64,000 nt of DNA from assembly GCA_048887225.1 (NCBI GenBank), contig JBHLJY010000004.1:128001-192000 (forward strand), read 5' to 3'. Shown here in pieces: positions 49,269 through 64,000 of the stretch (its first letter is position 1; the number at the start of each line of letters is the position of its first letter). Position numbers and translations under genes: made by a program. Origin of the DNA: Candidatus Hodarchaeota archaeon. Its GTDB lineage: Archaea > Asgardarchaeota > Lokiarchaeia > Sigyniarchaeales > SOKP01. The notes beneath the pieces were generated by a model. It ran no database searches. It worked only from the letters and a program-made list of their open reading frames with translations, and had not been told where the DNA came from.

Positions 49269-50354
49269 TTAAGCTATTTTTTTTCTTAACTGAGAGATCT
49301 CTAATCTCTGTTGTTCGTTTTGTTTTTCTAAATCTTCTACTAAATTTTTAAGTTCTCTCACTCTCAAAGCTAAGTTAATGTCATCTTCGGCAACTATTTG
49401 AACTTGACTGATACCACTCTCTATTTCTCCTTTCACTTGTGCCTTCTCGGTGTTATATTCTTTAAGCTGTTCTTGAAGATTTTGAATTTGTTTTTTTGCA
49501 GTGTTCAATTTACGCTGTAATTCCTCTGATAATGCCTTAAAAGTATCTTCAGAAGATTTAATCTCTTCTCTTGGGGGTATTCTTTCTTTAGTAGCTTCTA
49601 AAATAGAAGTAGATTTTTTTAAATCTTGAATTTCGAGATTCTTATTGTTTAATTCTACTCTCAAATCGTCAATCTTTTTCTGTAAGTGGGCGGTCGAACG
49701 TTCACCTTTTTTCTTACCTTCCTTGGTTTGGTACTTATCACCTATACTTTTTAACTTTTTTACTTTCTTCTCACTCGTGGAGCTTTTTAATTTTTTTTGA
49801 AGTCTTTTTATCTCTTTTGACAAATCTTCGTTTTTAATTCTTGCATTTGACTTAGTATGTTCTAATTCTTTTCTTAAATCAGCGATTTTTGAATTTAACT
49901 CATTAATTTCTTCCTTTTTGCTTTCTTCTTTTAGCTTATCTATTAAATTTTGTTGTTTGTTAATTTTTAACGTTAATTCCTTTACTAAAGCCTCTAGTGG
50001 TTCTTTTTTCTCCTCAATTCTTATTACTGTACTTTCATTATTTTTTTTCGTATGTTTTTCAAGTTCTTGTTGAAATTGTATCTTTTCTTTTCTTAAAAAA
50101 CCCATTTTATCCTTTAAATCTCTAATCTGTTTTTCTTTTTCTTCGAGTTCAATAGCTAATTTAGAATCCCCTTTTACTTTTTTCCCTTTCTTTTTTGAGT
50201 CTTTTATACCACTATCTGGTATTAAGGCCTCCAATTTCATAATAGTATCTTCTAATTGCTCGATTTTTTGGAGATATCCTATAATTTCTCTGTCTTTGGA
50301 TTCCAATTGATGTTCTAATTCGCTTAATTTATCTATTAAAGCATCTTCAGTCAT
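49269..50354 (-). CDS. long coiled-coil protein
   Basis: Heptad K/E/L/I-rich along the whole length with Lys-rich linkers. Confidence 0.75.
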   Translation of the reverse strand: MTEDALIDKLSELEHQLESKDREIIGYLQKIEQLEDTIMKLEALIPDSGIKDSKKKGKKVKGDSKLAIELEEKEKQIRDLKDKMGFLRKEKIQFQQELEKHTKKNNESTVIRIEEKKEPLEALVKELTLKINKQQNLIDKLKEESKKEEINELNSKIADLRKELEHTKSNARIKNEDLSKEIKRLQKKLKSSTSEKKVKKLKSIGDKYQTKEGKKKGERSTAHLQKKIDDLRVELNNKNLEIQDLKKSTSILEATKERIPPREEIKSSEDTFKALSEELQRKLNTAKKQIQNLQEQLKEYNTEKAQVKGEIESGISQVQIVAEDDINLALRVRELKNLVEDLEKQNEQQRLEISQLRKKIA

Positions 50355-50480
50355 CTTTGAATCTCATTTTTTAATTGAATTTTTTTTTTATATTTTGCAT
50401 TTAAAACATTTTCATAATTAAATATTAAGTCTTTAATTATAAATTATCAGATCCTCCTTCTTAGTAATAGTTTTATTCTA

Positions 50481-52427
50481 TTAATATATATCGAAATCTT
50501 TGATGGAAAATTTTTCAATCTTCTTCATAATAGGGATTAAACTTAGATAATTTAAAAGAACCATTGCACTAAAAAGAATAGAAATTCCAACAAAAGGAAC
50601 ATATAACGGGGGTAAGTACGCACGATCAATTAAAAATATTGAGTTTATAATCATTCCTAATCCTAAACTTAGTAAAAGAGACGGGATAATAACAAATAAA
50701 GCTTCTAAAAATAAGACTCTCTTCAAAGATTTTTTCTTAGCACCGACAGCCCTCATTATTAAGAAGTCTTTTGCTTTTTCTAATAACCCTGCTTTTTGAT
50801 AATTATATAGTGTAAGTATGGAAATTACTCCCATAACAATTATTAAAATTATAGGGTATAATGTCAAATTTGAAAGATAAGTTAGATTTTCTTCAAAAAT
50901 AGGATCCAACAATAGACATGTAAAATCATTTCCTAATTTTCCTTCTATAATTTCTTCAAGTTCTTCTTCTATATCTTCATAGGAACCACTCTCGAGTTTC
51001 ATTAAAACGATATTAATCTCATTATTAGTAAAATTCAATTCTTCTCGAAATATATCTAAGCCTATATATCCAACATTTCCACTGTAAAAACTATCTATTA
51101 TGACGCCTGAAATGTGAAATCTATGTCCTAAATCTTTGATTCTCAAACTCTGATCAAGAGCATAATCGAAAAAATTATAGGCTAATCCATCTCCAATGGT
51201 CATATTATCATATGAGTCGTCATCATCGAAAAATCTCCCTTCAATTTCAAAATCTTGGATCTTATCGTCTGGATTTACTCCAATAATAGGATAATTTCCT
51301 TTTCTTCCTTGACCCACAGTTTGATATCCCCCTCTACCCTCCTCTTCTCCATAATAATAATGATATCCATCTAACTCTTCGACATCGCAGAATTTTATCA
51401 AGCGCGGGTCTACTTCTTCGATTTCGTCTATTGAATTAATTTCTACAATATCGCTAAGGTTAAATAAATATTTTGGTTCCATAAAATCTATATCGTCTTC
51501 ATCGACAGAAACTGAAGGATCTGAAAACATTTTATACATATCCGCGTAAGAATCAACAGCTTCTTCGTGGCCTATTACGACAATATTGTCCTCTTGAGAT
51601 TTTTTTATCCACTCTTGTGAAGAAGTATTTAACACAATAGTTCCCAATCCCAATGTAAAAATAATAAGGAAGATAAAGGAAAAGATAAATAGAAATCTAA
51701 AAAATTCACCTTTTCTTCTGATTGTATTTATAATCGCAATTTTTAAATTAAAACCTAAATTCGAAAGCCATCTTGGAATCAATATTAATTTTTTTGAAGC
51801 GTCATAATTGTAGGGGATCTCTTTTGAAAATGTTTTTGTAATTTTCTGGTTTCCTATTTTTCTTAGGGCAAAACCAGATATAAAAAAAATGCCAAGTAAA
51901 CATGAAAAAAACAAAATTAATGTATAAAACAAATCAATATAAAACAGAATTTTTAATCCTACCAAGAGCATAACAAGAGCAAATATACCGTACGCAACCA
52001 AACCAAGAATTAATCCTAGTACAAATCCCAACAAGTAAATGATATACGCTTCGAGAAGATAAAAACTATATAATCTATTAGGCAGCGTTCCTAATGCTTT
52101 CATTATAGCAATATCTCTTTTTTTACTAATAATTAAAGAAGTAGTGATTGCTACGACAACTATGAAAGCAAGAAAAAGAACTAATACTAGAATTAATGTA
52201 TTAAACTGAGAATAGATTGAATTAATAGCTCCCGAAAAATAAAGATCATTACTATTTAAATCGTCTTCGATTGTAGTAAAACTTTGGATAATCAGGTTTA
52301 AGCCTAATGAAGATGAAAAATAAATCATAAATATTGCCAAAGAAATTACCAAAGCTATTGTTAAAACATATGGATATGTTTGAGATTTCTTTCTCATAAA
52401 ATCCTTTATTGCGAAATCTAAAGACAT
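50481..52427 (-). CDS. FtsX/MacB-like ABC permease (two permease repeats)
   Basis: KKRDIAIMKALG and KDFLIMRAVGA...LFLEA repeats; large extracytoplasmic loop. Confidence 0.88.
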   Translation of the reverse strand: MSLDFAIKDFMRKKSQTYPYVLTIALVISLAIFMIYFSSSLGLNLIIQSFTTIEDDLNSNDLYFSGAINSIYSQFNTLILVLVLFLAFIVVVAITTSLIISKKRDIAIMKALGTLPNRLYSFYLLEAYIIYLLGFVLGLILGLVAYGIFALVMLLVGLKILFYIDLFYTLILFFSCLLGIFFISGFALRKIGNQKITKTFSKEIPYNYDASKKLILIPRWLSNLGFNLKIAIINTIRRKGEFFRFLFIFSFIFLIIFTLGLGTIVLNTSSQEWIKKSQEDNIVVIGHEEAVDSYADMYKMFSDPSVSVDEDDIDFMEPKYLFNLSDIVEINSIDEIEEVDPRLIKFCDVEELDGYHYYYGEEEGRGGYQTVGQGRKGNYPIIGVNPDDKIQDFEIEGRFFDDDDSYDNMTIGDGLAYNFFDYALDQSLRIKDLGHRFHISGVIIDSFYSGNVGYIGLDIFREELNFTNNEINIVLMKLESGSYEDIEEELEEIIEGKLGNDFTCLLLDPIFEENLTYLSNLTLYPIILIIVMGVISILTLYNYQKAGLLEKAKDFLIMRAVGAKKKSLKRVLFLEALFVIIPSLLLSLGLGMIINSIFLIDRAYLPPLYVPFVGISILFSAMVLLNYLSLIPIMKKIEKFSIKDFDIY

Positions 52428-52448
52428 ATCTATTTTACCTCACACAAT

Positions 52449-53234
52449 TTACCTATTAATTGTAGAATTCACTTCTTTTATTATCCTTCCATCATCAAAA
52501 GTAATAACCCGATCTGCTAAATCAATTAATTTATCATCATGAGTAGCCAGAATTATTGTTTTTCTGAGATCTTTAAGATCTTTAAATAAATCTCTTATGA
52601 ATTCGCTCGTTTTTTTATCTAAATTTGCTGTGATTTCATCTCCAAATATTACAGGTGGATCATTAGCTAATGCCCGTGCAATTGCTACACGTTGTTGTTC
52701 TCCAGCTGAAAGTTGAAAGGGTAAATGTTCTCTTCGCTCATCTAAACTAACTTTCTTTAATAAATTTACGGCTCGTTTTCTTGCCTCTTTAAATGGTACT
52801 CCTGCAGTCCTTAAAATAAAAAGTATGTTTTCTTCTGCCGTCAAAGTCGAGATGAGATTATAATTTTGAAAAATAAATCCTGAATTGATTAATCTAAAAG
52901 TTGCTAGTGCTTCTTCTTCCAAATTACTAATTTTGATCCCATGAGCATATATAATTCCTTTGTTTGGAGAATCTAATCCACTAAGTAAATTTAATAGCGT
53001 GGTTTTTCCGGCTCCAGAAGGTCCTTTTATTACAACAAATTCTCCTTCCTCAATCTTTAAAGATACACCATCAACAGCTCTAACAATAAAATCTCCTATC
53101 TCGTAATCTTTAACCAAGTTTTCAGCAAAAATTATTACATTATCTTTTAATATCTCTATGATTTTATCTGCTTCAATATCTTCTTCTATTGATTCGTCAT
53201 CTTCAGTCTTCTTCAGCGAATCTTTCTTAGACAC
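52449..53234 (-). CDS. LolD/MacB-like ABC ATPase
   Basis: GPSGAGKTT, GFIFQNYNLI, LSAGEQQRVAIARAL, DEITANLD, ATHD. Confidence 0.93.
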   Translation of the reverse strand: MSKKDSLKKTEDDESIEEDIEADKIIEILKDNVIIFAENLVKDYEIGDFIVRAVDGVSLKIEEGEFVVIKGPSGAGKTTLLNLLSGLDSPNKGIIYAHGIKISNLEEEALATFRLINSGFIFQNYNLISTLTAEENILFILRTAGVPFKEARKRAVNLLKKVSLDERREHLPFQLSAGEQQRVAIARALANDPPVIFGDEITANLDKKTSEFIRDLFKDLKDLRKTIILATHDDKLIDLADRVITFDDGRIIKEVNSTINR

Positions 53235-53368
53235 AATTTATACAATTTTTTTAAGATTTTATCTCTTATGCATTTTTTAAGAGGTTTTAAATTCGGTTTT
53301 TTAAGGTTAGAATTATTGCTTTATGTAATAATTGCTTTATTAAAGAAAGATAAAATTTCAACGTTCGA

Positions 53369-53385
53369 GAAAATAGATTTAAATA
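53369..53385 (+). promoter_or_regulatory. BRE/TATA promoter of the candidate ncRNA
   Basis: GAAAATAGA-TTTAAATA ends 24 nt before the first base of the closing stem (53410). Confidence 0.5.
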
Positions 53386-53409
53386 TCATCTTGTTTTAAT
53401 AATTTATTA

Positions 53410-53538
53410 GAGGGAATTCGTGAGACGAGCAAAATATAATATCCCCTAATTTCCTAATATTTTAAATGGTAACTAAATTTTATCCCAAATCTAAAGCCAC
53501 AATTGTTAGTTTTAGATTAAGCTTCTCCCGGATCCCTC
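53410..53538 (+). ncRNA. candidate structured small RNA (closing stem + three hairpins)
   Basis: GAGGGAATTCGTGAGACGAGC (53410-30) pairs with GCTTCTCCCGGATCCCTC (53521-38). Internal hairpins: AAAATAT/ATATTTT, TGG..TAA/TTA..CCA, AATCTAAAGC/GTTTTAGATT. G-U pairs are valid only on the + strand. GC-rich ends in an AT-rich spacer. Confidence 0.55.
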
Positions 53539-53544
53539 AATCTC

Positions 53545-53551
53545 TTTTTTT
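53545..53551 (+). terminator. oligo-T tract after the candidate ncRNA
   Basis: T7 run 6 nt after the closing stem. Confidence 0.4.
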
Positions 53552-53709
53552 CAAAAGCTACAAAATAAAAAATATATCAAGTTACACTTAGAGGCACTAT
53601 ATTTTACGTGATTTATAAATTATAAAAGTCTTTTTAAGCTTGTTTTATAGTAATTTTCCAATTAGCGATTATTTTCACTAAATTATAAGAATAACATTTT
53701 TCTTTTAGA

Positions 53710-53723
53710 GAAAAGATTTATAT
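53710..53723 (+). promoter_or_regulatory. BRE/TATA promoter of the tusA-dsrE-iscS-iscU cluster
   Basis: GAAAAGATTTATAT, canonical archaeal arrangement. Confidence 0.55.
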
Positions 53724-53800
53724 CACAATATTAAATTTAATAAAAGATATCCTTTCTAATTAACGAAATCATTAAGATTTCTTATTAATAGAAAAAGAGG

Positions 53801-54064
53801 TTGAAAAAATTGAGTGAAAAGGAAAATAACGAATTTGAAATTGATAAGGAATTAGATACAACCGGATTATATTGTCCAGAACCCTTGTTTGAAGTACGAA
53901 ATCTATCTGAAACTCTTGAAATTGGCCAGTGTTTTAAAATAATTGCTGATGATCCGGCCGCTGAAGAAGATTTATCGAGGTGGGCTAAAAGAACTGGCAC
54001 AGAAATTCTCGATTTTAGAAAGGAGGATAATATTTTAACATTTATTTTTAAGAAAAACAAATGA
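53801..54064 (+). CDS. tusA: TusA/SirA sulfur carrier
   Basis: LDTTGLYCPEP, ADDPAA.EDL.RWA. Confidence 0.9.
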   Translation: MKKLSEKENNEFEIDKELDTTGLYCPEPLFEVRNLSETLEIGQCFKIIADDPAAEEDLSRWAKRTGTEILDFRKEDNILTFIFKKNK

Positions 54065-54081
54065 AAAAAGGGTGATGTGAA

Positions 54082-54438
54082 ATGGGAAAAAGTATATTAT
54101 ATGTACAAACAAGTGATAATCCTGAACGCCAGTATTCCCCCTTAGTGTTAGCGCAAACAGCGAAAGCTATGGATATTGATGCAACAGTTTATTATTTGGG
54201 GGCAGGCTTAAGAATATTAAAACCAGGCGAAGCTGAAAGAATAAAGCTAGGCGATTTTCCATCTGTTAAAGAAATGATTGATAAGACCTTAGAAGCGGGG
54301 GTTGAAATTTTAGTTTGTGAAGCTTCAAAAAGAATGTTAGGATGGGAGAAAGTTGAACTAATTCCAGGTGTAAAAATTGTAGGAGCAGCTACTCTAAACG
54401 ATTTAGTATTGGAGCATGATGCAACCCAATGGTTTTAA
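54082..54438 (+). CDS. DsrE/DsrF-like sulfur relay protein
   Basis: LA.TA.AMD...VYYLG.G, GV.ILVC..S, ELIPGV.IVGAA; SD GGGTGA. Confidence 0.85.
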   Translation: MGKSILYVQTSDNPERQYSPLVLAQTAKAMDIDATVYYLGAGLRILKPGEAERIKLGDFPSVKEMIDKTLEAGVEILVCEASKRMLGWEKVELIPGVKIVGAATLNDLVLEHDATQWF

Positions 54439-54498
54439 CAAAATTTTTTTTATTTATTTATATTAAAATAATTGATTTAATGAAAGAAGGATGAAACA

Positions 54499-55689
54499 AT
54501 GAGCATCTATTTAGATTATCAGGCTGCGAAACCCATAGATGATAGAGTTTTATCAGAGATGTTACCGTATTTTAAACAAAAATTCGCAAATCCTTCTTCT
54601 TTACACAATGATGGTGATATTGCAACCGATATTTTAGATATATCACGTAAAAAGGTTGCTAAATTTATTAATGCACCGAACGCATCTGATATCATTTTTA
54701 CTGCGAGTGCCACAGAATCAAATAATCTAGCTCTTATCGGTGCTTCAATGAATCGGAAAAACAAAGGAAATCATATCATTATTTCTGAAACTGAGCATAT
54801 TTCAATATTGAACTTAGCAAAATATTTAGAAAGACAAGGATTTGAAATTAGTAGAGTTCCTGTGGATCAATATGGAATCATAAGACTTGATAAATTAGAA
54901 CGCTTAATTAAAGATAAAACCATTTTAATATCAATCGCTTCGGCTAGCAACGAAGTAGGTTCTCTTCAACCATTAAAAGAAATAAGTGAAATCGCTTCTG
55001 ATAAAAAAATTTTATTTCATACTGACGCCGTAGCTAGCGAATCTACTATTCCGATTGATGTTCAGAGGATTCCAATTGATTTAATTACATTATCTTCAAA
55101 TGACATTTACGGCCCTAGAGGTGTAGGTGCCCTATACTTGAAAAAAGGAGTTCGAGTAAATCCAGTAATAATAGGTGGAGGTCAAGAAAGGGGTATTAGA
55201 TCAGGTTCTGAAAATATACCAGGAATAGTAGGTTTTGCTAAAGCAGCTGAGATTATGATGGAGGAAATGGAGATTGAGGCAGAACGCCTTAAAAAATTGA
55301 GAGACAAAATTATAAAAGAAATATTAGAAACGATTCCAAAATCTTATTTAAATGGACATCCCGAAAAAAGACTTCCAAATAACGTACATTTTAGATTTGA
55401 TTATATTGAGGGAGAGTCCTTAATACTCGGTTTAAAAGACGAAAATATTGCGGCTGCGACAGGTTCTGCGTGTACTTCAAAAACATTAGAACCTTCTCAC
55501 ACATTAATAGCAATGGGTTTGTTGCATAAAGAAGCTCACGGAAGTTTATTACTTTCATTGGGACGATTCACAAAAAACTCAGATGTCAATAAAGTCATAG
55601 AAGTTTTACCTGGAGTTGTCAAAAGATTAAGGATTATATCACCACTAACACCTCCTGATTTATTAGAACAATATAATGAGGTGAAATAA
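54499..55689 (+). CDS. iscS: cysteine desulfurase, class I
   Basis: IYLDYQA, FANPSS.H, TASATESNN, EH.S, HTDAV, GGGQERG.RSGSEN, ATGSACTS. The usual SxHK PLP-lysine motif reads SSNDIYGPRG. Confidence 0.9.
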   Translation: MSIYLDYQAAKPIDDRVLSEMLPYFKQKFANPSSLHNDGDIATDILDISRKKVAKFINAPNASDIIFTASATESNNLALIGASMNRKNKGNHIIISETEHISILNLAKYLERQGFEISRVPVDQYGIIRLDKLERLIKDKTILISIASASNEVGSLQPLKEISEIASDKKILFHTDAVASESTIPIDVQRIPIDLITLSSNDIYGPRGVGALYLKKGVRVNPVIIGGGQERGIRSGSENIPGIVGFAKAAEIMMEEMEIEAERLKKLRDKIIKEILETIPKSYLNGHPEKRLPNNVHFRFDYIEGESLILGLKDENIAAATGSACTSKTLEPSHTLIAMGLLHKEAHGSLLLSLGRFTKNSDVNKVIEVLPGVVKRLRIISPLTPPDLLEQYNEVK

Positions 55690-55694
55690 TATCA

Positions 55695-56498
55695 ATGAAA
55701 TCTACAAATTATAGTGAAAAAGTTCTGGATCATTTTAGAAATCCTAGAAATATGGGTGAAATTGAAAATCCAGATGGTTTCGGTCGCGTTGGAAATCCTG
55801 TTTGCGGTGATCTAATGTTTATGTATATAAAAGTAGGAAAAAATGAGAATGATGAAGAAATTATTGATGAGATCAAATTTAAAACATTTGGATGTGGTTC
55901 AGCAGTGGCAACATCATCAATGATTACTGAGATGGCAAAAGGTAAAACACTTGATGAGGCTTTTAAAATAACAAGACAGGATGTGGCAGATGAACTAGAA
56001 GGCCTGCCACCTATCAAAATGCATTGTTCCAATTTAGCTGCTGATGCATTACAGGCTGCCATCCGAAATTATCGTGAAGGGACAGAACCAGAGGTTAGTG
56101 TAGCAACATCATGTCAAATAGAGATAGAAGTTATTCTCGGATTTGATAAATTTTTAGGAAAAGGAGTTTATAAACAAAAACCTGATAATTTGGAAGAATT
56201 AAGAGATAAAAGAATATTAATCATAGATTCTGGTGATGATTCTTTAGAACTTGCTATGAACTTAAGTAAATATACAGGAAGAGTTATCCTGGTTACTTCT
56301 TCTAAAGAGGTTCCTGGAAGAGATCAGTTGGCGAAAGATATAAAAAAGTCCGATGTAAAAATATTGTTTCAATCTGAGCTGATTGAAATTAAAGGAGAGT
56401 TAGATGAGGTCGAAAAAGTAGTAATTCATGATTTTGATGAGGATGAGAATTATGAATTATTCGTGGATGTTGTAATCCATTTAGATTATAGAGGTTAG
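55695..56498 (+). CDS. iscU: IscU/NifU-N scaffold fused to a degenerate TrxB-type NAD(P)-binding domain
   Basis: YSEKVLDHF.NPRN.G, GNPVCGD, FGCGSA, LPPIKMHCS; C-terminal FLGKGV...LRDKRILIIDSGDDSLELA..LSK...V.LV...EIKG...VEKV......VD.V. Confidence 0.9.
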   Translation: MKSTNYSEKVLDHFRNPRNMGEIENPDGFGRVGNPVCGDLMFMYIKVGKNENDEEIIDEIKFKTFGCGSAVATSSMITEMAKGKTLDEAFKITRQDVADELEGLPPIKMHCSNLAADALQAAIRNYREGTEPEVSVATSCQIEIEVILGFDKFLGKGVYKQKPDNLEELRDKRILIIDSGDDSLELAMNLSKYTGRVILVTSSKEVPGRDQLAKDIKKSDVKILFQSELIEIKGELDEVEKVVIHDFDEDENYELFVDVVIHLDYRG

Positions 56499-56634
56499 GC
56501 GTCCAAATTTTCTTTTTTTATATTTCAATTAGACCTATAACTTTTTTTATTAAAAGTCTATATTTAACCTTTAATTTACAAATAATTAATCACTCTATTT
56601 TATATAATTAATAATTATTCATTAGGATGAAATT

Positions 56635-59010
56635 ATGAGTAAAGTACTAATTGTAGGTGGAGTAGCCGGGGGGGCATCTGCTGCAGCCCGCCTTCGAAGA
56701 ATGAAGGAGGATTTCGAGATAATTGTATTGGATAAGGGACCTTATGTTTCTTTCGCCAATTGTGGTTTACCTTATTATGTTGGAGATGTAATAAAGGAAC
56801 GGAAATCTTTAGAATTAGTTTCACCTCGTCTTTTTAAATTATGGTTTAAAATTGATGTAAGGGTAAATAATGAAGTATTATCAATCGAACGAGAGAAAAA
56901 GAGAGTAAAAGTAAGAGATTTAATAAAGTCAGAGGATTACACATTAGAATATGACTATCTTTTATTAGCTACAGGATCAACTCCAAATATTCCTCCTTTT
57001 CAGGGGCTTGATTCTGTTCCATATCATTCAATTTGGACAATCCCCGATGCAGTAAAAATAAGAGATTTTATTGATAAATATAAAATAAATAAAGCAGTGA
57101 TTGTTGGAGGAGGATTCATAGGATTAGAAATGGCAGAAAATTTAGCTAAGAAAGGGATAAAAGTAAAAATAGTGGAAATGTTTGACCAAGTAATGCCTCC
57201 AATTGACAAGGAAATGGCTCAATTTATTCATCAAGAATTAATTTTAAATGGTGTGTGCTTAGTTTTAGAAGATCCAGTTGATTCCTTTGGACGATCGGAT
57301 AATGATAAACCGTTTGTAAAAACAAAAGGCGGTCGTATAATTGAAACAGATCTGATTATTTTATCTATTGGGATAAGGCCTCAAAGCAAATTGGCTAAAT
57401 TAGCAGGACTCGAATTGAGTCAGGGAGGATATATTATTGTCAATGATGAGATGCGGACATCTGATCCTAATATTTATGCTGTTGGAGATGTCGTTCAAGT
57501 TCTCCATTATCAAACCAAGGAACCAATTTCGATAGCTTTAGCTGGACCTGCAAATAAACAAGGAAGAATTGCAGCAGATAATATTTCAGGAAGAAAAATG
57601 CAATATAAGGGGATTTTAGGCGCTTCAGTAGTAAAAGTTTTTGATTTAACTATAGCTTCTGTAGGACTTACAGAGAAACAACTTAAAAACATTGACATTA
57701 AGTATGAAAAAGTATATGTCCATCCAAATAATCATGCTGGTTATTATCCGGGAGCCACACCACTCGCTATTAAATTAATTTTCGAGGTGCCATCTGGAAA
57801 AGTTCTTGGGGCTCAAATTGTAGGCGGAATGGGAACCGATAAAAGAACTGATGTTATTTCAACGATTATAAAAATGAATGGTAGTGTTTTTGATTTAGAG
57901 GAACTCGAACTTACTTATGCTCCTCCTTATAGTTCTGCTAAAGATCCAGTCAATATGGCGGGTTTTGTAGCATCTAATTTTTTAAGAGGAGATATTTCAA
58001 TTAAACAATGGCATGACATTGATAAGTTTAAAGAAAATGAGGGATTCATTTTAGATGTTAGAACAACTGCTGAATATGAGGCGAGTAGGATTGAAGGCTC
58101 AACTAACATCCCCTTGCATGAGTTAAGAACAAGATTAAATGATTTACCAAGTAAAAAACCTATAATAGTATACTGTGAAGTCGGCTATAGAAGCTATTTA
58201 GCAACTCGAATACTATTACAGTCTGGTTTTAAAGAAGTTTATGAACTAACTGGAGGTTTTAATTTATATGAGATGGCTAATGCTAAAACAGAGGATATTA
58301 TTGCTGCATGTGGTGGTTCTGCACCTATTATGGAGGAATATATTAAACAGAAATCTACTGAGAGTGATAAATACATAATAGTTGATTGTAGCGGTTTAGC
58401 ATGCCCAGGACCTTTAAATGCAATGATAAAATCTCTTGAAACCTTGCCTCAGAATAAGAAGTTAAAGGTCTATGCAACAGATCCAGGATATAAATCAAGT
58501 GTCGAGGCCTATGCGAAATTGAATGAAGCAGTTCAATTAATATATTTAGGAAAAGAAGAAGGTAAATTAGTTGCTACACTAGAAAAAGGAACAACACCAT
58601 TCATTGAAGTTGAAGTACCAACTAAGGTAAGAAAAAAGTCTAGAAAAGAAATACGGGGTCCAAATGCACCTGCTTTATCGGATATCTCACCAGAGGAACT
58701 ATACGAAAGAGTTGATTCAGATGATCCACCTGCGATCCTTATCGACGTACGCACACCTGAAGAATATTATGGCCCTCATGGACGTATAAAAAGTGCTAAA
58801 TTAATCCCTTTAGGTGAATTAATGAATAATATAGATCAATTAGGGGATTTTAAAGAAGAAGAAATAGTGACAATTTGTCATAGTGGCGCACGCTCGATGA
58901 TGGCAGCACAATTTTTAGCGCAAGCAGGATTCAAGGATATTAGAAACCTTACGGGAGGAATGATGATGTGGCATAGAAAAAATTTTCCAGTTGCGAGAGG
59001 GAAACATTAA
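56635..59010 (+). CDS. CoA-disulfide/persulfide reductase + rhodanese + TusA + rhodanese fusion
   Basis: GGVAGGASAA, SFANCGLPY, GGGFIGLE, HAGYYPGA, YAPPYS; rhodanese YCEVGYRS; TusA DCSGLACPGP; rhodanese ICHSGARS. Confidence 0.92.
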   Translation: MSKVLIVGGVAGGASAAARLRRMKEDFEIIVLDKGPYVSFANCGLPYYVGDVIKERKSLELVSPRLFKLWFKIDVRVNNEVLSIEREKKRVKVRDLIKSEDYTLEYDYLLLATGSTPNIPPFQGLDSVPYHSIWTIPDAVKIRDFIDKYKINKAVIVGGGFIGLEMAENLAKKGIKVKIVEMFDQVMPPIDKEMAQFIHQELILNGVCLVLEDPVDSFGRSDNDKPFVKTKGGRIIETDLIILSIGIRPQSKLAKLAGLELSQGGYIIVNDEMRTSDPNIYAVGDVVQVLHYQTKEPISIALAGPANKQGRIAADNISGRKMQYKGILGASVVKVFDLTIASVGLTEKQLKNIDIKYEKVYVHPNNHAGYYPGATPLAIKLIFEVPSGKVLGAQIVGGMGTDKRTDVISTIIKMNGSVFDLEELELTYAPPYSSAKDPVNMAGFVASNFLRGDISIKQWHDIDKFKENEGFILDVRTTAEYEASRIEGSTNIPLHELRTRLNDLPSKKPIIVYCEVGYRSYLATRILLQSGFKEVYELTGGFNLYEMANAKTEDIIAACGGSAPIMEEYIKQKSTESDKYIIVDCSGLACPGPLNAMIKSLETLPQNKKLKVYATDPGYKSSVEAYAKLNEAVQLIYLGKEEGKLVATLEKGTTPFIEVEVPTKVRKKSRKEIRGPNAPALSDISPEELYERVDSDDPPAILIDVRTPEEYYGPHGRIKSAKLIPLGELMNNIDQLGDFKEEEIVTICHSGARSMMAAQFLAQAGFKDIRNLTGGMMMWHRKNFPVARGKH

Positions 59011-59206
59011 TAAATCAGCAACATCGTATTGAAATCGAGATTAAAGAATTTTAAAAGATTGCATCATTTTTATAGCATTCATCAGATATATTTCATATTT
59101 AGCTATTTCTGCAGTATATATTCTTATTTATATGGATTGTTTTTTACTAAATATAATGATATCTATTAATTTATTTTTTTAAAAAAAAAAGAAAAGTGAT
59201 AAATTT

Positions 59207-60484
59207 ATGGAATTGAAAGAAGTATGGCTAATTGACTATGCTCGTACTGCTTTTTCTCGTTCTAGACCAAAACAACCTGAAAGAGATGTTTTTGGTGAAA
59301 TAAGGGGCGATGAATTACTCGCAGAATTATTAATAAAATTTTTTGATCAGAAATTGGCAGATAAAGGATTAGAAAGAAGTGATATTGATGAAGTTTCTGT
59401 AGGTGTTGCTGCGGGTGTGCTTGAAAATTGGACTTATGGAGGTAGAATTCCTATCTTTTTGGCAGGTTTTCCAGTAGACGTTCCAGCTTTCTCAATAGAT
59501 CGACAATGTGGTTCGGCAGGATCTGGTATGCATGTAGGGATCATGGAGATTATGACAGGTAATAGTAAATGTATATTAGCAACGGGTTTTGAGCATATGA
59601 CGCGTGTTCGAGGCAGGGGTGCAACTCCCAACTTAAAATTAATGGATAAGAAAAGCAAATATTATCGTCCTGCATTAGATATGCCTACATCATTTAATAT
59701 GCTTCAAACAGCTCAAAAATTATATGAAGAAGAAGTACCAAAATTTATTAAAGAAGATTTAGATAAGTTTGGTGTGCGAAGTCACAATTTAACAATCAAA
59801 AATCATGAGGCAGGATGGTTTAAAGGCGAAATACTTCCTATTGAAGGGCATATGGAAGGAAATATTGAAGTCCCAATGATGGTTGATAGAGACATGAACG
59901 CTAGAAAATCAAATTTAGAAACAGTTTCGAAACTTCCCAGATTATCTAAACCGTTCTATCTAAAGAAAAATGGAGGTAAAAAAGGTTATATTGAAAGGGA
60001 AGGTACTGCAGAAGGAGTTATAACTGTTGGGAACTCATCCCCTTTAAATGCTGGCGCTACGGCCGCTATTCTTATGGAGGCTGAAGAAGCAAAAAAAAGA
60101 GGAATTGAACCGATGGCTAGAATTCTATCAATTGGATGGGCAGGTGTTCATCCAGCTACGATGGGTCGTGGACCTGTTCCCGCAACTCGTAAGGCTTTAG
60201 AATACGCAAATTTAATTGCTGAAGATATTGAATTTTGGGAAATTAATGAAGCATTTTGTATCGTTGCATTGAATTGCATGGATAAGTTTGGTATTCCCGA
60301 AAAAAAAATTAATGTTATGGGGGGTTCGACTGCGATCGGTCATCCGTTAGGATCAACTATGATTCGGCTTACAGGAACTTTAGCGAGAATTCTCAAGAAT
60401 AAAAAAGCTAAATATGGTGTTGCTAATGCTTGTGTCGGTGGTGGTCAAGGAGTTGCTACAATAATAGAAAATCTTGATGCATAA
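59207..60484 (+). CDS. acetyl-CoA C-acyltransferase (thiolase)
   Basis: DRQCGS, GNSSPLNAGA, EINEAF, GHPLG, CVGGGQG. Confidence 0.95.
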   Translation: MELKEVWLIDYARTAFSRSRPKQPERDVFGEIRGDELLAELLIKFFDQKLADKGLERSDIDEVSVGVAAGVLENWTYGGRIPIFLAGFPVDVPAFSIDRQCGSAGSGMHVGIMEIMTGNSKCILATGFEHMTRVRGRGATPNLKLMDKKSKYYRPALDMPTSFNMLQTAQKLYEEEVPKFIKEDLDKFGVRSHNLTIKNHEAGWFKGEILPIEGHMEGNIEVPMMVDRDMNARKSNLETVSKLPRLSKPFYLKKNGGKKGYIEREGTAEGVITVGNSSPLNAGATAAILMEAEEAKKRGIEPMARILSIGWAGVHPATMGRGPVPATRKALEYANLIAEDIEFWEINEAFCIVALNCMDKFGIPEKKINVMGGSTAIGHPLGSTMIRLTGTLARILKNKKAKYGVANACVGGGQGVATIIENLDA

Positions 60485-60580
60485 CTCAATGTTATGAAAA
60501 AATAAGCAATTATTTTATAAATTAATCACAAATTTAATGAGTTCATAAAAAATAAAAGATTTCAATTTTTTTCTTAACTA

Positions 60581-62032
60581 ATGGAGAAGATTGAGTTAGA
60601 AGAATTCAAAAAATTTGATACGCTTTTTAATCCAAAACATATTGCTTTTATTGGCGCTTCTGAGAGCTCAACTTTTGGTGCTATGCTCTATCTTAGGGCG
60701 TTTAAAAGATCAAAATGGTCTGAAACATTTTATCCTATTAATCCAAAACGAGAAGAAATTATGGGATGGAAATGTTATCCTTCAGTTCTGGAGGTTCCAT
60801 ATCCCATTGATACTGCTTATGTTTCTTTAAAGACACAATTCATTCCTCAAGTAATAAAAGAATGTGTAGAAAAGAAAATTCGTTGGGTAATTATATTTGC
60901 TTCAGGATTTTCTGAAACAGGAGATCCAGAAGGAAAAAAAATGGAACAAGAGCTCATAGAAATAATCAAAGATTCAGAAACAAGAATTATTGGACCAAAC
61001 TGTTTAGGTCCTTATTCTCCTGGAAATGGGATGATGTTCTCCTCATCTTTTGCCCGACCTGGGAGTTTAGGCTCCGTTTCTTTTATGTCGCAAAGCGGTG
61101 GGCATCTGACTCAACTTTTAGACGTTGGTTTTAAAAGAGATATTAGATTCAGATATGGCGTCTCATTTGGGAACCAGATTGATTTAAGTTGTTTAGATTT
61201 TTTAAGACATTTTCACAAAGATTCAAAGACTAAAGTGATTGCGGCTTATTTAGAATCCTTTGGGTCCGCCCACGGCTATGATTTCTTTTTAGAACTTAAA
61301 AAAACAACTCGGATTAAACCAGTAATTATTTGGAAAGGTGGTTACACCGATGATGGTACTCGTGCAGCGTTTTCACATACAGGTGCTATGGCTTCAAACT
61401 TAAGCTTATGGAAAACAATGGCAAAACAAACTGGAACGATATTAGTTAAAGATAACGAGGAATGGTGGAATACAACGAAAACTTTTGAATTGCTTTTTCC
61501 TAAATATTTGCCTAAAGGAAGAAATGTGGCAATTATTACTCCTGGTGGAGGTAATAGTGTTAACGTAACTGATTTATTTGCAGCACATAATTTAAAAATC
61601 CCTGATTTAACAATTAACTCTCAAGAAAAGGTCTCTAAAATTTTACCAAATGTAAATGTCAATATCAAAAATCCAATAGATTTAGGTGCCTCTGGATTTG
61701 TAATAGATCTTTTTGTCGAATGTATAGAGATCTGCTTGAACGATCCTAATATTGACATTGTGATTGTTCCATTTTGGCCCCATCATTTGTTTAACTGGGT
61801 ATTTAAAAGAATGCTTAAAATCCAGCAGAGGACTGAGAAACCAATAATCTTTTGTATACCCAGTGTTGCTGATTCTATAGACATAGCGAAAAAATTCAAT
61901 CGTGTGCAAAAAATTCTCAACAAGAAAAGGGCGCTTTATTTCTTATCGTTTAGAGACGCTGCGAATAGCATCTCATTGTTTTGCGATTATGCCGATTATC
62001 TAAGATCTCGTAAAATTGAAATTAAGAGATAA
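60581..62032 (+). CDS. ADP-forming acyl-CoA synthetase alpha subunit (CoA-binding)
   Basis: FNPK.IA.IGAS, GFSE.G, IIGPNCLG, SQSGG, S.GNQ.D, YLE, AFSHTG phospho-His, NP.D. Confidence 0.92.
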   Translation: MEKIELEEFKKFDTLFNPKHIAFIGASESSTFGAMLYLRAFKRSKWSETFYPINPKREEIMGWKCYPSVLEVPYPIDTAYVSLKTQFIPQVIKECVEKKIRWVIIFASGFSETGDPEGKKMEQELIEIIKDSETRIIGPNCLGPYSPGNGMMFSSSFARPGSLGSVSFMSQSGGHLTQLLDVGFKRDIRFRYGVSFGNQIDLSCLDFLRHFHKDSKTKVIAAYLESFGSAHGYDFFLELKKTTRIKPVIIWKGGYTDDGTRAAFSHTGAMASNLSLWKTMAKQTGTILVKDNEEWWNTTKTFELLFPKYLPKGRNVAIITPGGGNSVNVTDLFAAHNLKIPDLTINSQEKVSKILPNVNVNIKNPIDLGASGFVIDLFVECIEICLNDPNIDIVIVPFWPHHLFNWVFKRMLKIQQRTEKPIIFCIPSVADSIDIAKKFNRVQKILNKKRALYFLSFRDAANSISLFCDYADYLRSRKIEIKR

Positions 62033-62066
62033 TTATAAAAATTTATTTTTAAAGTTGAATTGTAAA

Positions 62067-62753
62067 ATGAAAAAAGAAGGAATTTTGAAAGGTGGAGATC
62101 GTAAAGAACATAATTGGAATAAAACAAAATTAGGAGAACCGTTCAAAAAGGCTTTAGACAGATTTCGTGAAGAAGTGCTTGAGCGAGAAGATTTCGATCC
62201 AACCTCGCTATTACAATTTGGATTATTTATGGCAAAGGCAGTTATTAATATATTAAAAGAAGCTGAAGCCGAATTTGGAGTAGAAGGCCAGAAAATGGTT
62301 AATAACGCTTTGATTAAAACTGGGTACGATATGGGTAAACAAATATTAAAGGATATTGAAATACCACCAGAAATCTCAGACATAGAATTAATTAGTTTTT
62401 TAGCAACAATTATTAATACTCAGGCTTGGACATCGATTGAAGACCCTCGGATTGATAACGATGAACAATGCTCGTTCGATATTATTTGGTGTCCGCTTCA
62501 AGATGTTTACTCTGCCTTTGACTGTCGAGTTCAACGTTATTTAGTACAAGGAATTATTGATGCTTTTAGAGATTCTAATATTTTAGATTCTGAATTTCAA
62601 ATAGAATTCAAGAAAACTATCCCTGCTGGAGCAAATACATGCTTATTTGTCCTTAATAAAAAGAAACTAGGAGAACCAGATAAATGGGAAGCATACTCTA
62701 GGTTATTAGAAAAGAAAGCTCTGAATAGAATGAAAGAACGAAAAAAGAAATAA
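62067..62753 (+). CDS. V4R/ATC-hydrolase-like protein (start uncertain)
   Basis: FG.E......A....G, F.I.WCP, C......G, F.KTIP.G..TC.F pattern. Confidence 0.55.
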   Translation: MKKEGILKGGDRKEHNWNKTKLGEPFKKALDRFREEVLEREDFDPTSLLQFGLFMAKAVINILKEAEAEFGVEGQKMVNNALIKTGYDMGKQILKDIEIPPEISDIELISFLATIINTQAWTSIEDPRIDNDEQCSFDIIWCPLQDVYSAFDCRVQRYLVQGIIDAFRDSNILDSEFQIEFKKTIPAGANTCLFVLNKKKLGEPDKWEAYSRLLEKKALNRMKERKKK

Positions 62754-62795
62754 TTATTTTTTTTTAACTTAAGTTATCATTTCATAAAAATGAAA

Positions 62796-62809
62796 GAAAA
62801 GCTTTATAT
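62796..62809 (+). promoter_or_regulatory. BRE/TATA promoter
   Basis: GAAAAGCTTTATAT, about 48 nt before the MFS start. Confidence 0.55.
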
Positions 62810-62856
62810 TAGGAATCAGAAAATATTAAATTAAAACTTCTGAAAAAGGTTATATA

Positions 62857-64000
62857 ATGGTTGAAAATCATATTATTCCGAAATTTTCTACTTCTGATAA
62901 GTTTATATGGGGATTAGCTAGTTTTGGCACTTCTCTAATTGCTGGAGTATATGCTGCAATGTTAGTAATGTTCTTTCACGTATATCTCGAGTTGGATCCC
63001 GTTCTTATTGCCATTGCCGCAGTTTTATACGCCATATGGAACGCTGTAAACGATCCTCTTTTCGGATTTCTTTCTGATAAAACAAAAGGAAAGAGAGGAC
63101 GCCGCATTCCTTATATGCAATTTACTGCTCCTTTTTTGGCTTTGTTTTTTACCGTGATTTGGTTCGTTCCACCAAAATGGGACGATTTTGGTATTTTTTG
63201 GTGGATGCTAATTACGATGTTATTATACGATACTGCTTATACGATTATAGGTTTAGTCTACTCAGCTTTACTTCCTGAGATTACCGAAGATGATAGTGAA
63301 CGAGGAGAACTTCAAAAATATAATTCTTTATTCTATTTGTTTGGGGCGATGTTTGGATTTCTTATACCTGATTTACTCCGGCCAAAGGCAGGTGAAACTA
63401 ATTTATTTCCACTCTACATAGGAATGATTGTAGTAGGTATTGCCTCCGCTATATGTGTTGTAGTTACCTCCTTAAGATTTAAGGAGCGTCCCGAATTTAC
63501 ACAAATAGACGAACCACTTGGTCTTGTCGATTCGGTTAAATATACCTTTAAAAGTAAAGCTTTTTTAATATTAACCGCTGCCAATTTTATGTCGATTCTT
63601 TTTCAGCAAATCCTTTTGTCTTACTTGTTTTATTTAGCGGATTACGTCATGCGGGTATCGACAGTTATTTTAATTTTGTCAATATTTCTAGGTTTAATCA
63701 TTGGTGTGTTTTTTGCAAATGTATTTGCTAATAAATTTGGTGTTGTTAAAGCAAATCAAATTCTTTTAATAATTGGAGCTATACCATTGATAATGCTGCC
63801 ATTTATCCCTCTAATACTTATATATTTATGTTTATTTCTTGGTGGATTTGGCTTATCTGGACCGTTAGTTTTAACAAACGTACTTTATGCTCAAGTGGCT
63901 GATGAGGACGAGACAAAATCAGGTGTTAGGAGGGAAGCATCGTTTTTTGGAACAAACGCAATGATTACCAAACCTGCTCAATCTATTGCTATTGCAATAG
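62857..64000 (+). CDS. MFS transporter, GPH/MelB-like, runs off the window
   Basis: ATG 62857: MVENHIIPKFSTSDKFIWGLASFG...WNAVNDPLFGFLSD...GRRIPY...DEDETKSGVRREASFFG; not in the ORF track. Confidence 0.9.
   Translation, partial: MVENHIIPKFSTSDKFIWGLASFGTSLIAGVYAAMLVMFFHVYLELDPVLIAIAAVLYAIWNAVNDPLFGFLSDKTKGKRGRRIPYMQFTAPFLALFFTVIWFVPPKWDDFGIFWWMLITMLLYDTAYTIIGLVYSALLPEITEDDSERGELQKYNSLFYLFGAMFGFLIPDLLRPKAGETNLFPLYIGMIVVGIASAICVVVTSLRFKERPEFTQIDEPLGLVDSVKYTFKSKAFLILTAANFMSILFQQILLSYLFYLADYVMRVSTVILILSIFLGLIIGVFFANVFANKFGVVKANQILLIIGAIPLIMLPFIPLILIYLCLFLGGFGLSGPLVLTNVLYAQVADEDETKSGVRREASFFGTNAMITKPAQSIAIAI

Follow-up and report, generated by a model that had tools for sequence, protein, structure and literature searches.

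What is the role of an IscS that lacks the residues of a cysteine desulfurase, and from where would the IscU encoded beside it receive its sulfur? This question is raised by positions 53801-59010 of the stretch of DNA analysed here, a window of 64,000 nucleotides (contig JBHLJY010000004.1, or C4, positions 128001-192000) from the 3.27-Mb, 98% complete genome of a Candidatus Hodarchaeota archaeon (GC about 30%), whose relatives in our comparison are labelled Promethearchaeota/Lokiarchaeia. The literature raises it too, asking about the role of desulfurase-dead IscS and about the origin of the sulfur and electrons of MIS, an IscS/IscU-like pair (PMC13066941, PMC7585200). We report that the lysine-less class of IscS is specifically linked to tusA, and often to dsrE, a linkage that names candidate sulfur donors. 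The best explanation, to which we give rather more than even credence, is that a core of four genes would serve cysteine-independent Fe-S assembly by way of an IscS acting as an adaptor, the reductase gene that follows them belonging to a separate unit.

An earlier note on this DNA had described five genes and their domains, and the description was borne out by the open reading frames (ORFs) and by the Pfam and NCBIfam profiles used to assign domains to the window ORFs. Five co-oriented ORFs on the + strand fill 53801-59010, with intergenic gaps of 17, 60, 5, and 136 nt in order. The locus probably comprises two adjacent units, namely, the core or cassette of tusA, a dsrE3-like gene, a lysine-less iscS, and an iscU fusion (53801-56498), and, as a neighbour, a gene for a CoADR-rhodanese-TusA-rhodanese protein (56635-59010).

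Linkage of the lysine-less IscS to TusA and DsrE

Conservation of the cluster was the check that the earlier note had asked for, and the four core genes pass it, whereas the CoADR gene fails it outside Lokiarchaeia. The sample consisted of 80 fetched loci that align over both domains of the IscU fusion, and the window proteins were mapped onto them. The order tusA-(dsrE)-iscS-iscU::tail is kept in all 80. Its archaeal carriers are Lokiarchaeia, Thor-, Hel-, Hermod-, and Odinarchaeota, and Halobacteriota; its bacterial carriers are Syntrophaceae/Syntrophia and other Desulfobacterota, WOR-3, Zixibacteria, Aminicenantes, Actinomycetota, and Coriobacteriia. DsrE identity between phyla is 62-97% among the cassette loci, and dsrE is present in 135 of the 301 genomes of the phylum and in 60 of the 68 of the family.

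The reverse test started from IscS itself. Species genomes were scanned with the back-translated motif N-D-I-Y-G-P-[KR]-G-V, with H-K-I-Y-G-P-[KR]-G-V as the control; loci were counted if they held a complete IscS gene and at least 1.2 kb of upstream sequence, and their flanks were searched with hidden Markov models of the cassette TusA and DsrE. A co-oriented tusA gene is found in the 1.2 kb upstream of IscS at 61 of 68 lysine-less loci (with dsrE as well at 34) and at none of 86 canonical loci (dsrE, likewise, at none), a contrast that overstates the number of separate events, as related genomes are not independent. Even so, the pattern clearly spans many lineages, and the control is clearly empty.

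The lysine-less sample also takes in lineages in which IscU is unfused: Archaeoglobus, Archaeoglobi, Geoglobus, Bathyarchaeia, Hadarchaeum, Methanocellales, Methanophagales, and Methanomassiliicoccales. At the ORF level, one Archaeoglobus locus (L124) is a compact tusA-iscS(SSNDIYGP)-iscU, with 17 nt between tusA and iscS. It is the lysine-less class that is characterised by linkage to TusA; DsrE is often linked as well, and the thioredoxin reductase-like tail of IscU marks a subset.

Local rearrangements were also seen. In a Thorarchaeota metagenome-assembled genome (MAG; L083) and in an uncultured archaeon (L143), some 2.3-3 kb are inserted between iscS and iscU, splitting an otherwise tight pair. 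Directly 5' of tusA, most of the Lokiarchaeia-type loci L015-L056 carry a gene with a B12-binding domain (PF02310 and PF02607), which is absent in the window.

Active sites and folds of the core proteins

The IscS of the window (54499-55689, + strand, 396 aa; PF00266, E 5.5e-75) reads SSNDIYGP where class I desulfurases read S-G-H-K-I-Y-G-P, that is, H205N and K206D, and it carries the further substitutions Q183A and R354L. Class I cysteine desulfurases are recognised by the pyridoxal phosphate (PLP) Schiff-base lysine K206 with H205, Q183, and R354, all four of which are replaced here; the loop Cys, the counterpart of E. coli C328, is kept in GSACTS. All matches to the NCBIfam IscS/NifS models score under their cut-offs. 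The closest solved relative is 4EB5_A, the IscS2 of A. fulgidus (E 1.2e-139), which has the same ssndiygp motif, and the window protein is of the A. fulgidus type in having Asp at the Lys position, the loop Cys, an iscU gene 5 nt past the iscS stop, and a place inside the lysine-less clade. The entry 4R5F has Lys at the Asp position of A. fulgidus IscS.

These residue states extend through the class. In the 80 fetched loci Asp (72) or Glu (2) takes the place of the Lys in every complete IscS, and the loop Cys is present in 80/80. Among 122 unique lysine-less sequences, H205 and K206 are replaced, Q183 becomes A, P, S, or V, and R354 becomes L, E, V, or Q, whereas T76, H104, D180, and the loop Cys are 100% conserved (122/122 for the Cys); 93 canonical sequences retain all eight positions. 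Neither Q183 nor R354 played any part in selecting either class. In the tree, the lysine-less proteins form one clade (support 1.0) with no canonical member within it. The active site is best described, from these alignments, as remodelled rather than decayed, and a decaying pseudogene is ruled out by full-length conservation, the invariant loop Cys, and monophyly.

The A. fulgidus IscS is reported to be devoid of desulfurase activity and to provide, with its loop Cys, the fourth ligand of a [2Fe-2S] cluster on IscU (PMC13066941; PMC7585200, after Marinoni 2012, Yamanaka 2013, and Pagnier 2015). IscS1 of M. acetivorans likewise lacks the Lys (PMC7585200). The earlier note had singled out the variant IscS and the tail of IscU as anomalies; both are present, and SSNDIYGP makes the first of them real, but they are features of the whole class, not peculiar to the window, and the lysine-less class was already known.

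The iscU fusion (55695-56498, + strand) encodes 267 aa, with NifU_N at residues 6-128 and a weak Pyr_redox match at 173-245. Its scaffold domain (55695-56087, + strand, residues 1-131; NifU_N, E 3.4e-46) is an IscU/NifU_N protein by its residues: C37, D39, C67, H110, C111, and LPPIK are invariant in a 38-sequence alignment, and the three Cys are 100% conserved among homologues. The domain scores 192 bits with TIGR03419 (cut-off 187.9) and matches 7C8M (E 5e-54) and A. fulgidus IscU (E 5e-47). An AlphaFold (AF2) model of the fusion built from the same alignment has pLDDT 85 and two domains, of which residues 1-130 superpose on 7c8m_A by Foldseek (root mean square deviation [rmsd] 1.5 A); the linker 132-144, which holds Cys140, is disordered in the model.

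The tail (56127-56498, + strand, residues 145-267 and the stop) has the fold of the NADPH subdomain of low-Mr thioredoxin reductases and ferredoxin-NADP reductases (Foldseek 3f8d_C, rmsd 1.7 A, 120 columns, 27% identity). Family-wide, the CxxC is replaced by G-K-G-V-Y, the Gly loop (GxGxxA) by D-S-G-D-D-S, and HRR by T-S-S; there is no FAD domain, and TIGR01292 gives 42.9 bits against a cut-off of 343. Lacking CxxC, the Gly-rich loop, HRR, and the FAD domain, the tail is therefore not a low-Mr thioredoxin reductase, and an active NAD(P)H-binding reductase module was ruled out, since the Gly-rich loop, CxxC, and FAD domain are absent throughout the family. The tail alone matches 331 protein clusters; a larger set of 545 relatives includes plain IscU genes and is not a fusion count. 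One relative in an Actinomycetes MAG (L071:8001-8798) has an IscU fusion with one in-frame stop, which may reflect gene decay, an error of sequencing, or codon recoding.

Of the two carriers, TusA (53801-54064, + strand, 87 aa from TTG 53801; PF01206, E 6.5e-19) matches its family over the full length and has its active Cys25, invariant among 69 homologues, in the motif L-Y-C-P-E-P. A GAGGT Shine-Dalgarno sequence occupies 53797-53801 and the TTG at 53810 begins 8 nt past it; this TTG, not TTG 53801, is the likely start.

The DsrE-like protein (54082-54438, + strand, 118 aa; PF02635, E 1.4e-14, residues 3-114, and also PF13686) belongs to the DsrE/TusD family, with a single Cys79, close to position 78, about where the fold has its active-site Cys; it is present in 100% of homologues. 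Its closest solved relative is 3MC3 (S. solfataricus SSO1125, DsrE3A-type; E 1.1e-11), and it is from this top PDB match that we take the provisional DsrE3-like subfamily label, DsrE3A or another. The cassette TusA and DsrE are the sole copies in the genome when the cassette proteins are used as queries. That every carrier domain keeps its Cys, as had been claimed, is confirmed among homologues for TusA, DsrE, IscU, the IscS loop, and the CoADR, rhodanese, and TusA domains of the neighbouring gene.

The reductase neighbour, the leader, and the genome

The fifth gene (56635-59010, + strand; PF07992, PF02852, PF00581 twice, and PF01206) encodes 791 aa: a CoADR part (56635-57972, residues 1-446, Cys43), a first rhodanese domain, Rhd1 (about 57997-58287, Cys514), a TusA domain (58378-58587, residues 582-651, Cys590), and Rhd2 (about 58666-58998, Cys748), all on the + strand. 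C43, C514, C590, and C748 are conserved in 32-33 of 33 full-length sequences. Membership of the CoADR-RHD family follows from S-F-A-N-C43-G, the GGVAGG and GGGFIG motifs, and a rhodanese domain with its Cys. The match to TIGR03385 (E 2.4e-145) scores 484.7, under the trusted cut-off of 578.8, and the substrate is therefore not assigned by family. Similar multidomain clusters with TusA were found by structure search in Bacillota, Bacteroidota, and Thermotogota (TM 0.72-0.83); the architecture is known, and the protein is probably active. The 33 sequences also share two further invariant cysteines, one in the NAD(P)H domain (C208) and one in the linker that follows Rhd1 (C559).

The earlier note had made this protein an integral fifth member of the system, and here the comparison goes against it. 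Of about 52 Lokiarchaeia-type loci, 40 (40 of all 80) have the CoADR gene, co-oriented, no more than 8 kb downstream of the cassette, at a distance that varies from 0.5 to 3.6 kb. In 15 loci an opposite-strand gene with a CCG domain and a 4Fe-4S dicluster (HdrD-like) stands between it and the IscU fusion. The CoADR gene is absent from the locus of the nearest relative (L031), whose TusA, DsrE, and IscS are 94-97% identical to those of the window, and, in the loci compared for downstream linkage, from bacterial, Halobacteriota, and Archaeoglobi cassettes. At most Lokiarchaeial loci it is followed directly by rubrerythrin and desulfoferrodoxin genes on the same strand. It is probably a separate, lineage-specific stress or sulfane-sulfur unit outside the core, a reading that we adopt because of these comparative data; motifs in the gaps were not relied on, given their chance frequency. 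The loci listed with the intervening CCG gene are L017, L018, L021, L022, L028, L034, L036-L038, L040, L049, L052, and L054.

A palindromic TATA-like box, TTTATAAATTATAAAA, lies at 53612-53627 (+ strand), about 175-190 nt before the TusA start. It is invariant in the window, L031, and L033 and near-invariant in L042 and L032, which suggests a candidate cassette promoter, the sole promoter-like element with comparative support. Within the leader 53612-53800, the blocks TTTATAAATTATAAAA, ATTATAAGAATAA, and ATCCTTTCTAA are conserved in five relatives; they may represent a promoter with an operator, or else a structured 5' untranslated region.

The archaeal TATA consensus TTTAWATA occurs in the window at chance frequency (48 found, 46 expected), and the boxes at 53717-53724 and 56599-56606 were for that reason not relied on. 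The latter, TTTATATA (+ strand), stands 29 nt before the CoADR ATG and is, as a chance-level motif, a possible separate promoter with a short leader; an oligo-T run, TTTTCTTTTTTT (56508-56519, + strand), 10 nt past the iscU stop, is a possible, weak archaeal terminator. Both larger gaps, the 60 nt between DsrE and IscS and the 136 nt between IscU and CoADR, hold oligo-T runs and TATA-like stretches. With the consensus at chance level and such stretches in both gaps, the one clear promoter proposed for all five genes is not confirmed. No Rfam family reaches its gathering score within 50000-64000.

Elsewhere in the genome, contig C10 carries a canonical, Lys-bearing IscS (SAHKLYGPKG) and two plain IscU genes. 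Because of these, the cassette is, judged by gene content, an accessory second IscS/IscU set and not the organism's minimal system, as had been supposed. SufB/D (PF01458) gave no match in this 98%-complete genome and is present in all 14 control genomes; the organism appears to be without SUF/SMS and dependent on IscS/IscU-type systems alone. Lokiarchaeia, Syntrophaceae, WOR-3, and further lineages repeatedly have genes for desulfoferrodoxin (Dfx), rubrerythrin, FprA-like flavodiiron protein, and HMA P-type ATPase next to the cassette; the genome under study carries Dfx and FprA on a different contig.

On C10 (35344-45900), the two IscU genes in tandem, a cation-diffusion-type transporter, and a 1014-aa HMA/YHS P-type ATPase come after the canonical IscS within about 10 kb, and a similar ATPase is found directly 3' of the lysine-less cassette in the WOR-3/Deltaproteobacteria loci L057, L059, L067, L068, L080, and L094. 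In the window, an opposite-strand ABC transporter adjoins the five-gene block on its upstream side, and thiolase, CoA-ligase-like, and ATC-hydrolase-like genes (Pfam) lie 3' of it. The reading frames of the CoA-ligase-like gene (60581-62032) and the ATC-hydrolase-like gene (62016-62753) share 17 nt; L031 keeps this pair after a cassette without the CoADR and thiolase genes.

Sulfur flow and known systems

How might such a core work? We propose that the lysine-less IscS would be a PLP-independent, desulfurase-dead adaptor. Sulfane sulfur, held as persulfide (or thiosulfonate) on a DsrE3-like trimer and on TusA, would pass to the Cys of its mobile loop, the reverse of the IscS-to-TusA direction of E. 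coli, and from the loop to the three-Cys site of IscU; the loop Cys could also complete the ligand set of the cluster as its fourth member, as it does in the (IscS-IscU)2 complex of A. fulgidus. The sulfur of the Fe-S clusters would then be inorganic or relayed, with no need for cysteine. The tail of IscU, in its stripped form, would not bind NAD(P)H in the usual way and most likely docks a partner, either a carrier or a reductant. The CoADR unit would be a Lokiarchaeial NAD(P)H-dependent CoA-persulfide/polysulfide reductase-sulfurtransferase, probably part of one group with the stress genes for rubrerythrin and desulfoferrodoxin; loading or unloading of the carriers may be among its tasks, and the cassette would not require it. 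In support of the single steps, persulfide is exchanged within complexes of E. coli IscS and TusA (PMC2854127), and sulfur passes between TusA and proteins of the DsrE3 type (PMC11094781). The cysteine-independent, relay-fed IscS/IscU variant of the earlier note fits the four-gene core very well, with its specific TusA linkage, its loss of Q183 and R354 with the loop Cys kept, and its desulfurase-inactive homologue, but the CoADR gene that had been counted in is not part of it.

Several points weigh against this reading in addition to the kinship of the genomes noted above. Seven of the 68 lysine-less loci have no tusA upstream, and about 25 Lokiarchaeial loci lack dsrE in the cassette, so that DsrE is not obligatory in cis. 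With a canonical IscS and two IscU present, the cassette may be dispensable or conditional. The M. acetivorans proteome consistently shows IscS2/IscU2 only, and IscS1 made in E. coli goes into inclusion bodies (both PMC7585200). The proposed direction of transfer is an inference, and outside Lokiarchaeia the proposal would still call for a loader of TusA/DsrE and for a two-electron source for reducing S0 to sulfide. It is on a more tentative footing, a little short of an even chance, that we extend the proposal to an ancient cysteine-independent pathway, widespread in anaerobes and spread as one clade over Archaea and Bacteria, in which DsrE3-loaded TusA would feed the lysine-less IscS as a persulfide adaptor and the Lokiarchaeial CoADR-Rhd-TusA-Rhd would supply sulfur and/or electrons.

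Could the clusters be built simply from free sulfide, with the lysine-less IscS as a structural partner and Cys ligand? TusA and DsrE would then serve other thiolation (tRNA s2U, molybdopterin, thiamine) or receive sulfur, and be co-located for co-regulation. Sulfide is a proven Fe-S sulfur source in methanogens, and M. acetivorans IscU2 was chemically reconstituted by sulfide and iron (PMC7585200, PMC13066941); in addition, TusA and TusD/DsrE homologues make up the E. coli tRNA thiolation relay (PMC2854127), and as sole copies found in the genome the cassette carriers could have general duties. This explanation is unlikely all the same. Were the carriers unconnected with the lost desulfurase chemistry, a linkage confined to the lysine-less class would be difficult to account for. 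The genes keep their order and close spacing between phyla (gaps of 17, 60, and 5 nt in the window, and of 17 nt for Archaeoglobus tusA-iscS), and an IscS without desulfurase activity would generate no sulfur that it could pass to TusA.

The neighbourhood invites two other readings. One would have the five genes as a single operon and pathway, in which the CoADR-Rhd-TusA-Rhd protein is the dedicated point of entry: it takes up polysulfide or CoA-persulfide, draws on NAD(P)H, and passes both sulfur and reducing power by way of TusA/DsrE to IscS and IscU. The five genes are adjacent and co-oriented in the window, the CoADR gene stays within 8 kb downstream at most Lokiarchaeia-type loci despite local rearrangements, its protein has its own TusA and two rhodanese domains with conserved Cys, and MIS has no known electron donor (PMC13066941). 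A CoADR-like gene about 2 kb 5' of tusA in two Deltaproteobacteria (L059/L156, L105) was also considered as support for the reductase link and set aside as too thin, coming from two related genomes, one of them IS200-interrupted. We regard the single pathway as quite improbable: the CoADR gene is missing from L031 and from all non-Lokiarchaeial cassettes, its distance is variable and interrupted by the opposite-strand CCG/Fer4 gene, the rubrerythrin and desulfoferrodoxin genes directly after it at most Lokiarchaeial loci point to a stress operon, an oligo-T run and a TATA box are present in the 136-nt gap, and characterised CoADR-RHD enzymes turn persulfide into H2S, consuming sulfane sulfur (PMC9405070).

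The other reading, which is compatible with the adaptor proposal, would make the cassette a stress-time Fe-S repair and assembly system of anaerobes, in a SUF-like role as in E. coli, switched on by O2 or by reactive sulfur species, under conditions that oxidise sulfide to sulfane sulfur and damage clusters. The stress genes and P-type ATPases that recur beside the cassette in several phyla speak for it, as does a housekeeping-type canonical IscS/IscU elsewhere in the genome. With Dfx and FprA on a different contig in the window's genome, and with neighbourhoods of related genomes that are partly inherited synteny, such a role is possible but on balance doubtful.

If the adaptor proposal is true, it would mean cysteine-independent sulfur entry into the Fe-S biogenesis of anaerobes, Asgard archaea included, and a reversal of the textbook IscS-to-TusA direction. 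The window locus itself is an ordinary copy of an under-studied, widespread IscS/IscU variant with a lineage-specific reductase neighbour. In the full-text literature searched we found nothing that ties TusA/DsrE to lysine-less IscS or to MIS; the arrangement is drawn, uninterpreted, only in Fig. S1 of PMC7585200.

That figure shows a counterpart with the gene order of the core. The isc1 cluster of M. acetivorans (MA0806-MA0811) runs, as here, from a SirA-like (TusA) gene (MA0810) through a DrsE superfamily gene (MA0809) and lysine-less IscS1 (MA0808) to an enlarged IscU1 (MA0807, 24.2 kDa), and the main text of that paper terms the isc1 neighbours "genes of unknown function". The A. fulgidus IscS2-IscU pair (4EB5, 4EB7, 4HVK) shares SSNDIYGP and the loop Cys with the window, and loci of the genus Archaeoglobus share a tusA directly upstream; unlike here, their IscU is unfused (153-154 aa), and neither of the two loci of the genus that were compared has dsrE in the operon. 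The published A. fulgidus work, in the portions accessible to us, does not connect the pair to TusA.

MIS (MisS/MisU, Garcia et al. 2022, as described in the review PMC13066941) is, like the core, a two-component IscS/IscU-like pair of anaerobic archaea without chaperones, ferredoxin, or A-type carrier, and the window locus likewise lacks hscBA, fdx, and iscA. MIS is defined there as a desulfurase with a scaffold; the core, by contrast, has a dismantled desulfurase site and two carriers as constant partners. PMC13066941 notes the use of sulfide by MIS with an unclear electron donor, does not mention DsrE, and treats TusA only as an acceptor from IscS for tRNA thiolation and the molybdenum cofactor.

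The CoADR-RHD enzymes, such as Npsr of Shewanella and CoAPR of Enterococcus faecalis (PMC9405070), share with the fifth gene product the CoADR core Cys43, the FAD and NAD(P)H motifs, and a C-terminal rhodanese Cys, and CoADR-Rhd-TusA-(Rhd/DsrE) proteins of about 820 aa in Bacillota, Bacteroidota, and Thermotogota have an architecture like that of the 791-aa protein. Unlike in those systems, the gene here adjoins an Fe-S assembly cassette, and no CstR-type regulator was seen.

The E. coli IscS-TusA-TusBCD relay (3LVJ; PMC2854127) is built from the same IscS, TusA, and DsrE/TusD families with conserved Cys. There, sulfur is taken from cysteine through PLP-Lys206 and passes from IscS to TusA and on to TusD for tRNA thiolation. 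Unlike its E. coli counterpart, the IscS described here is predicted to be unable to make a persulfide, so that the flow would start elsewhere and most likely run toward IscS and IscU.

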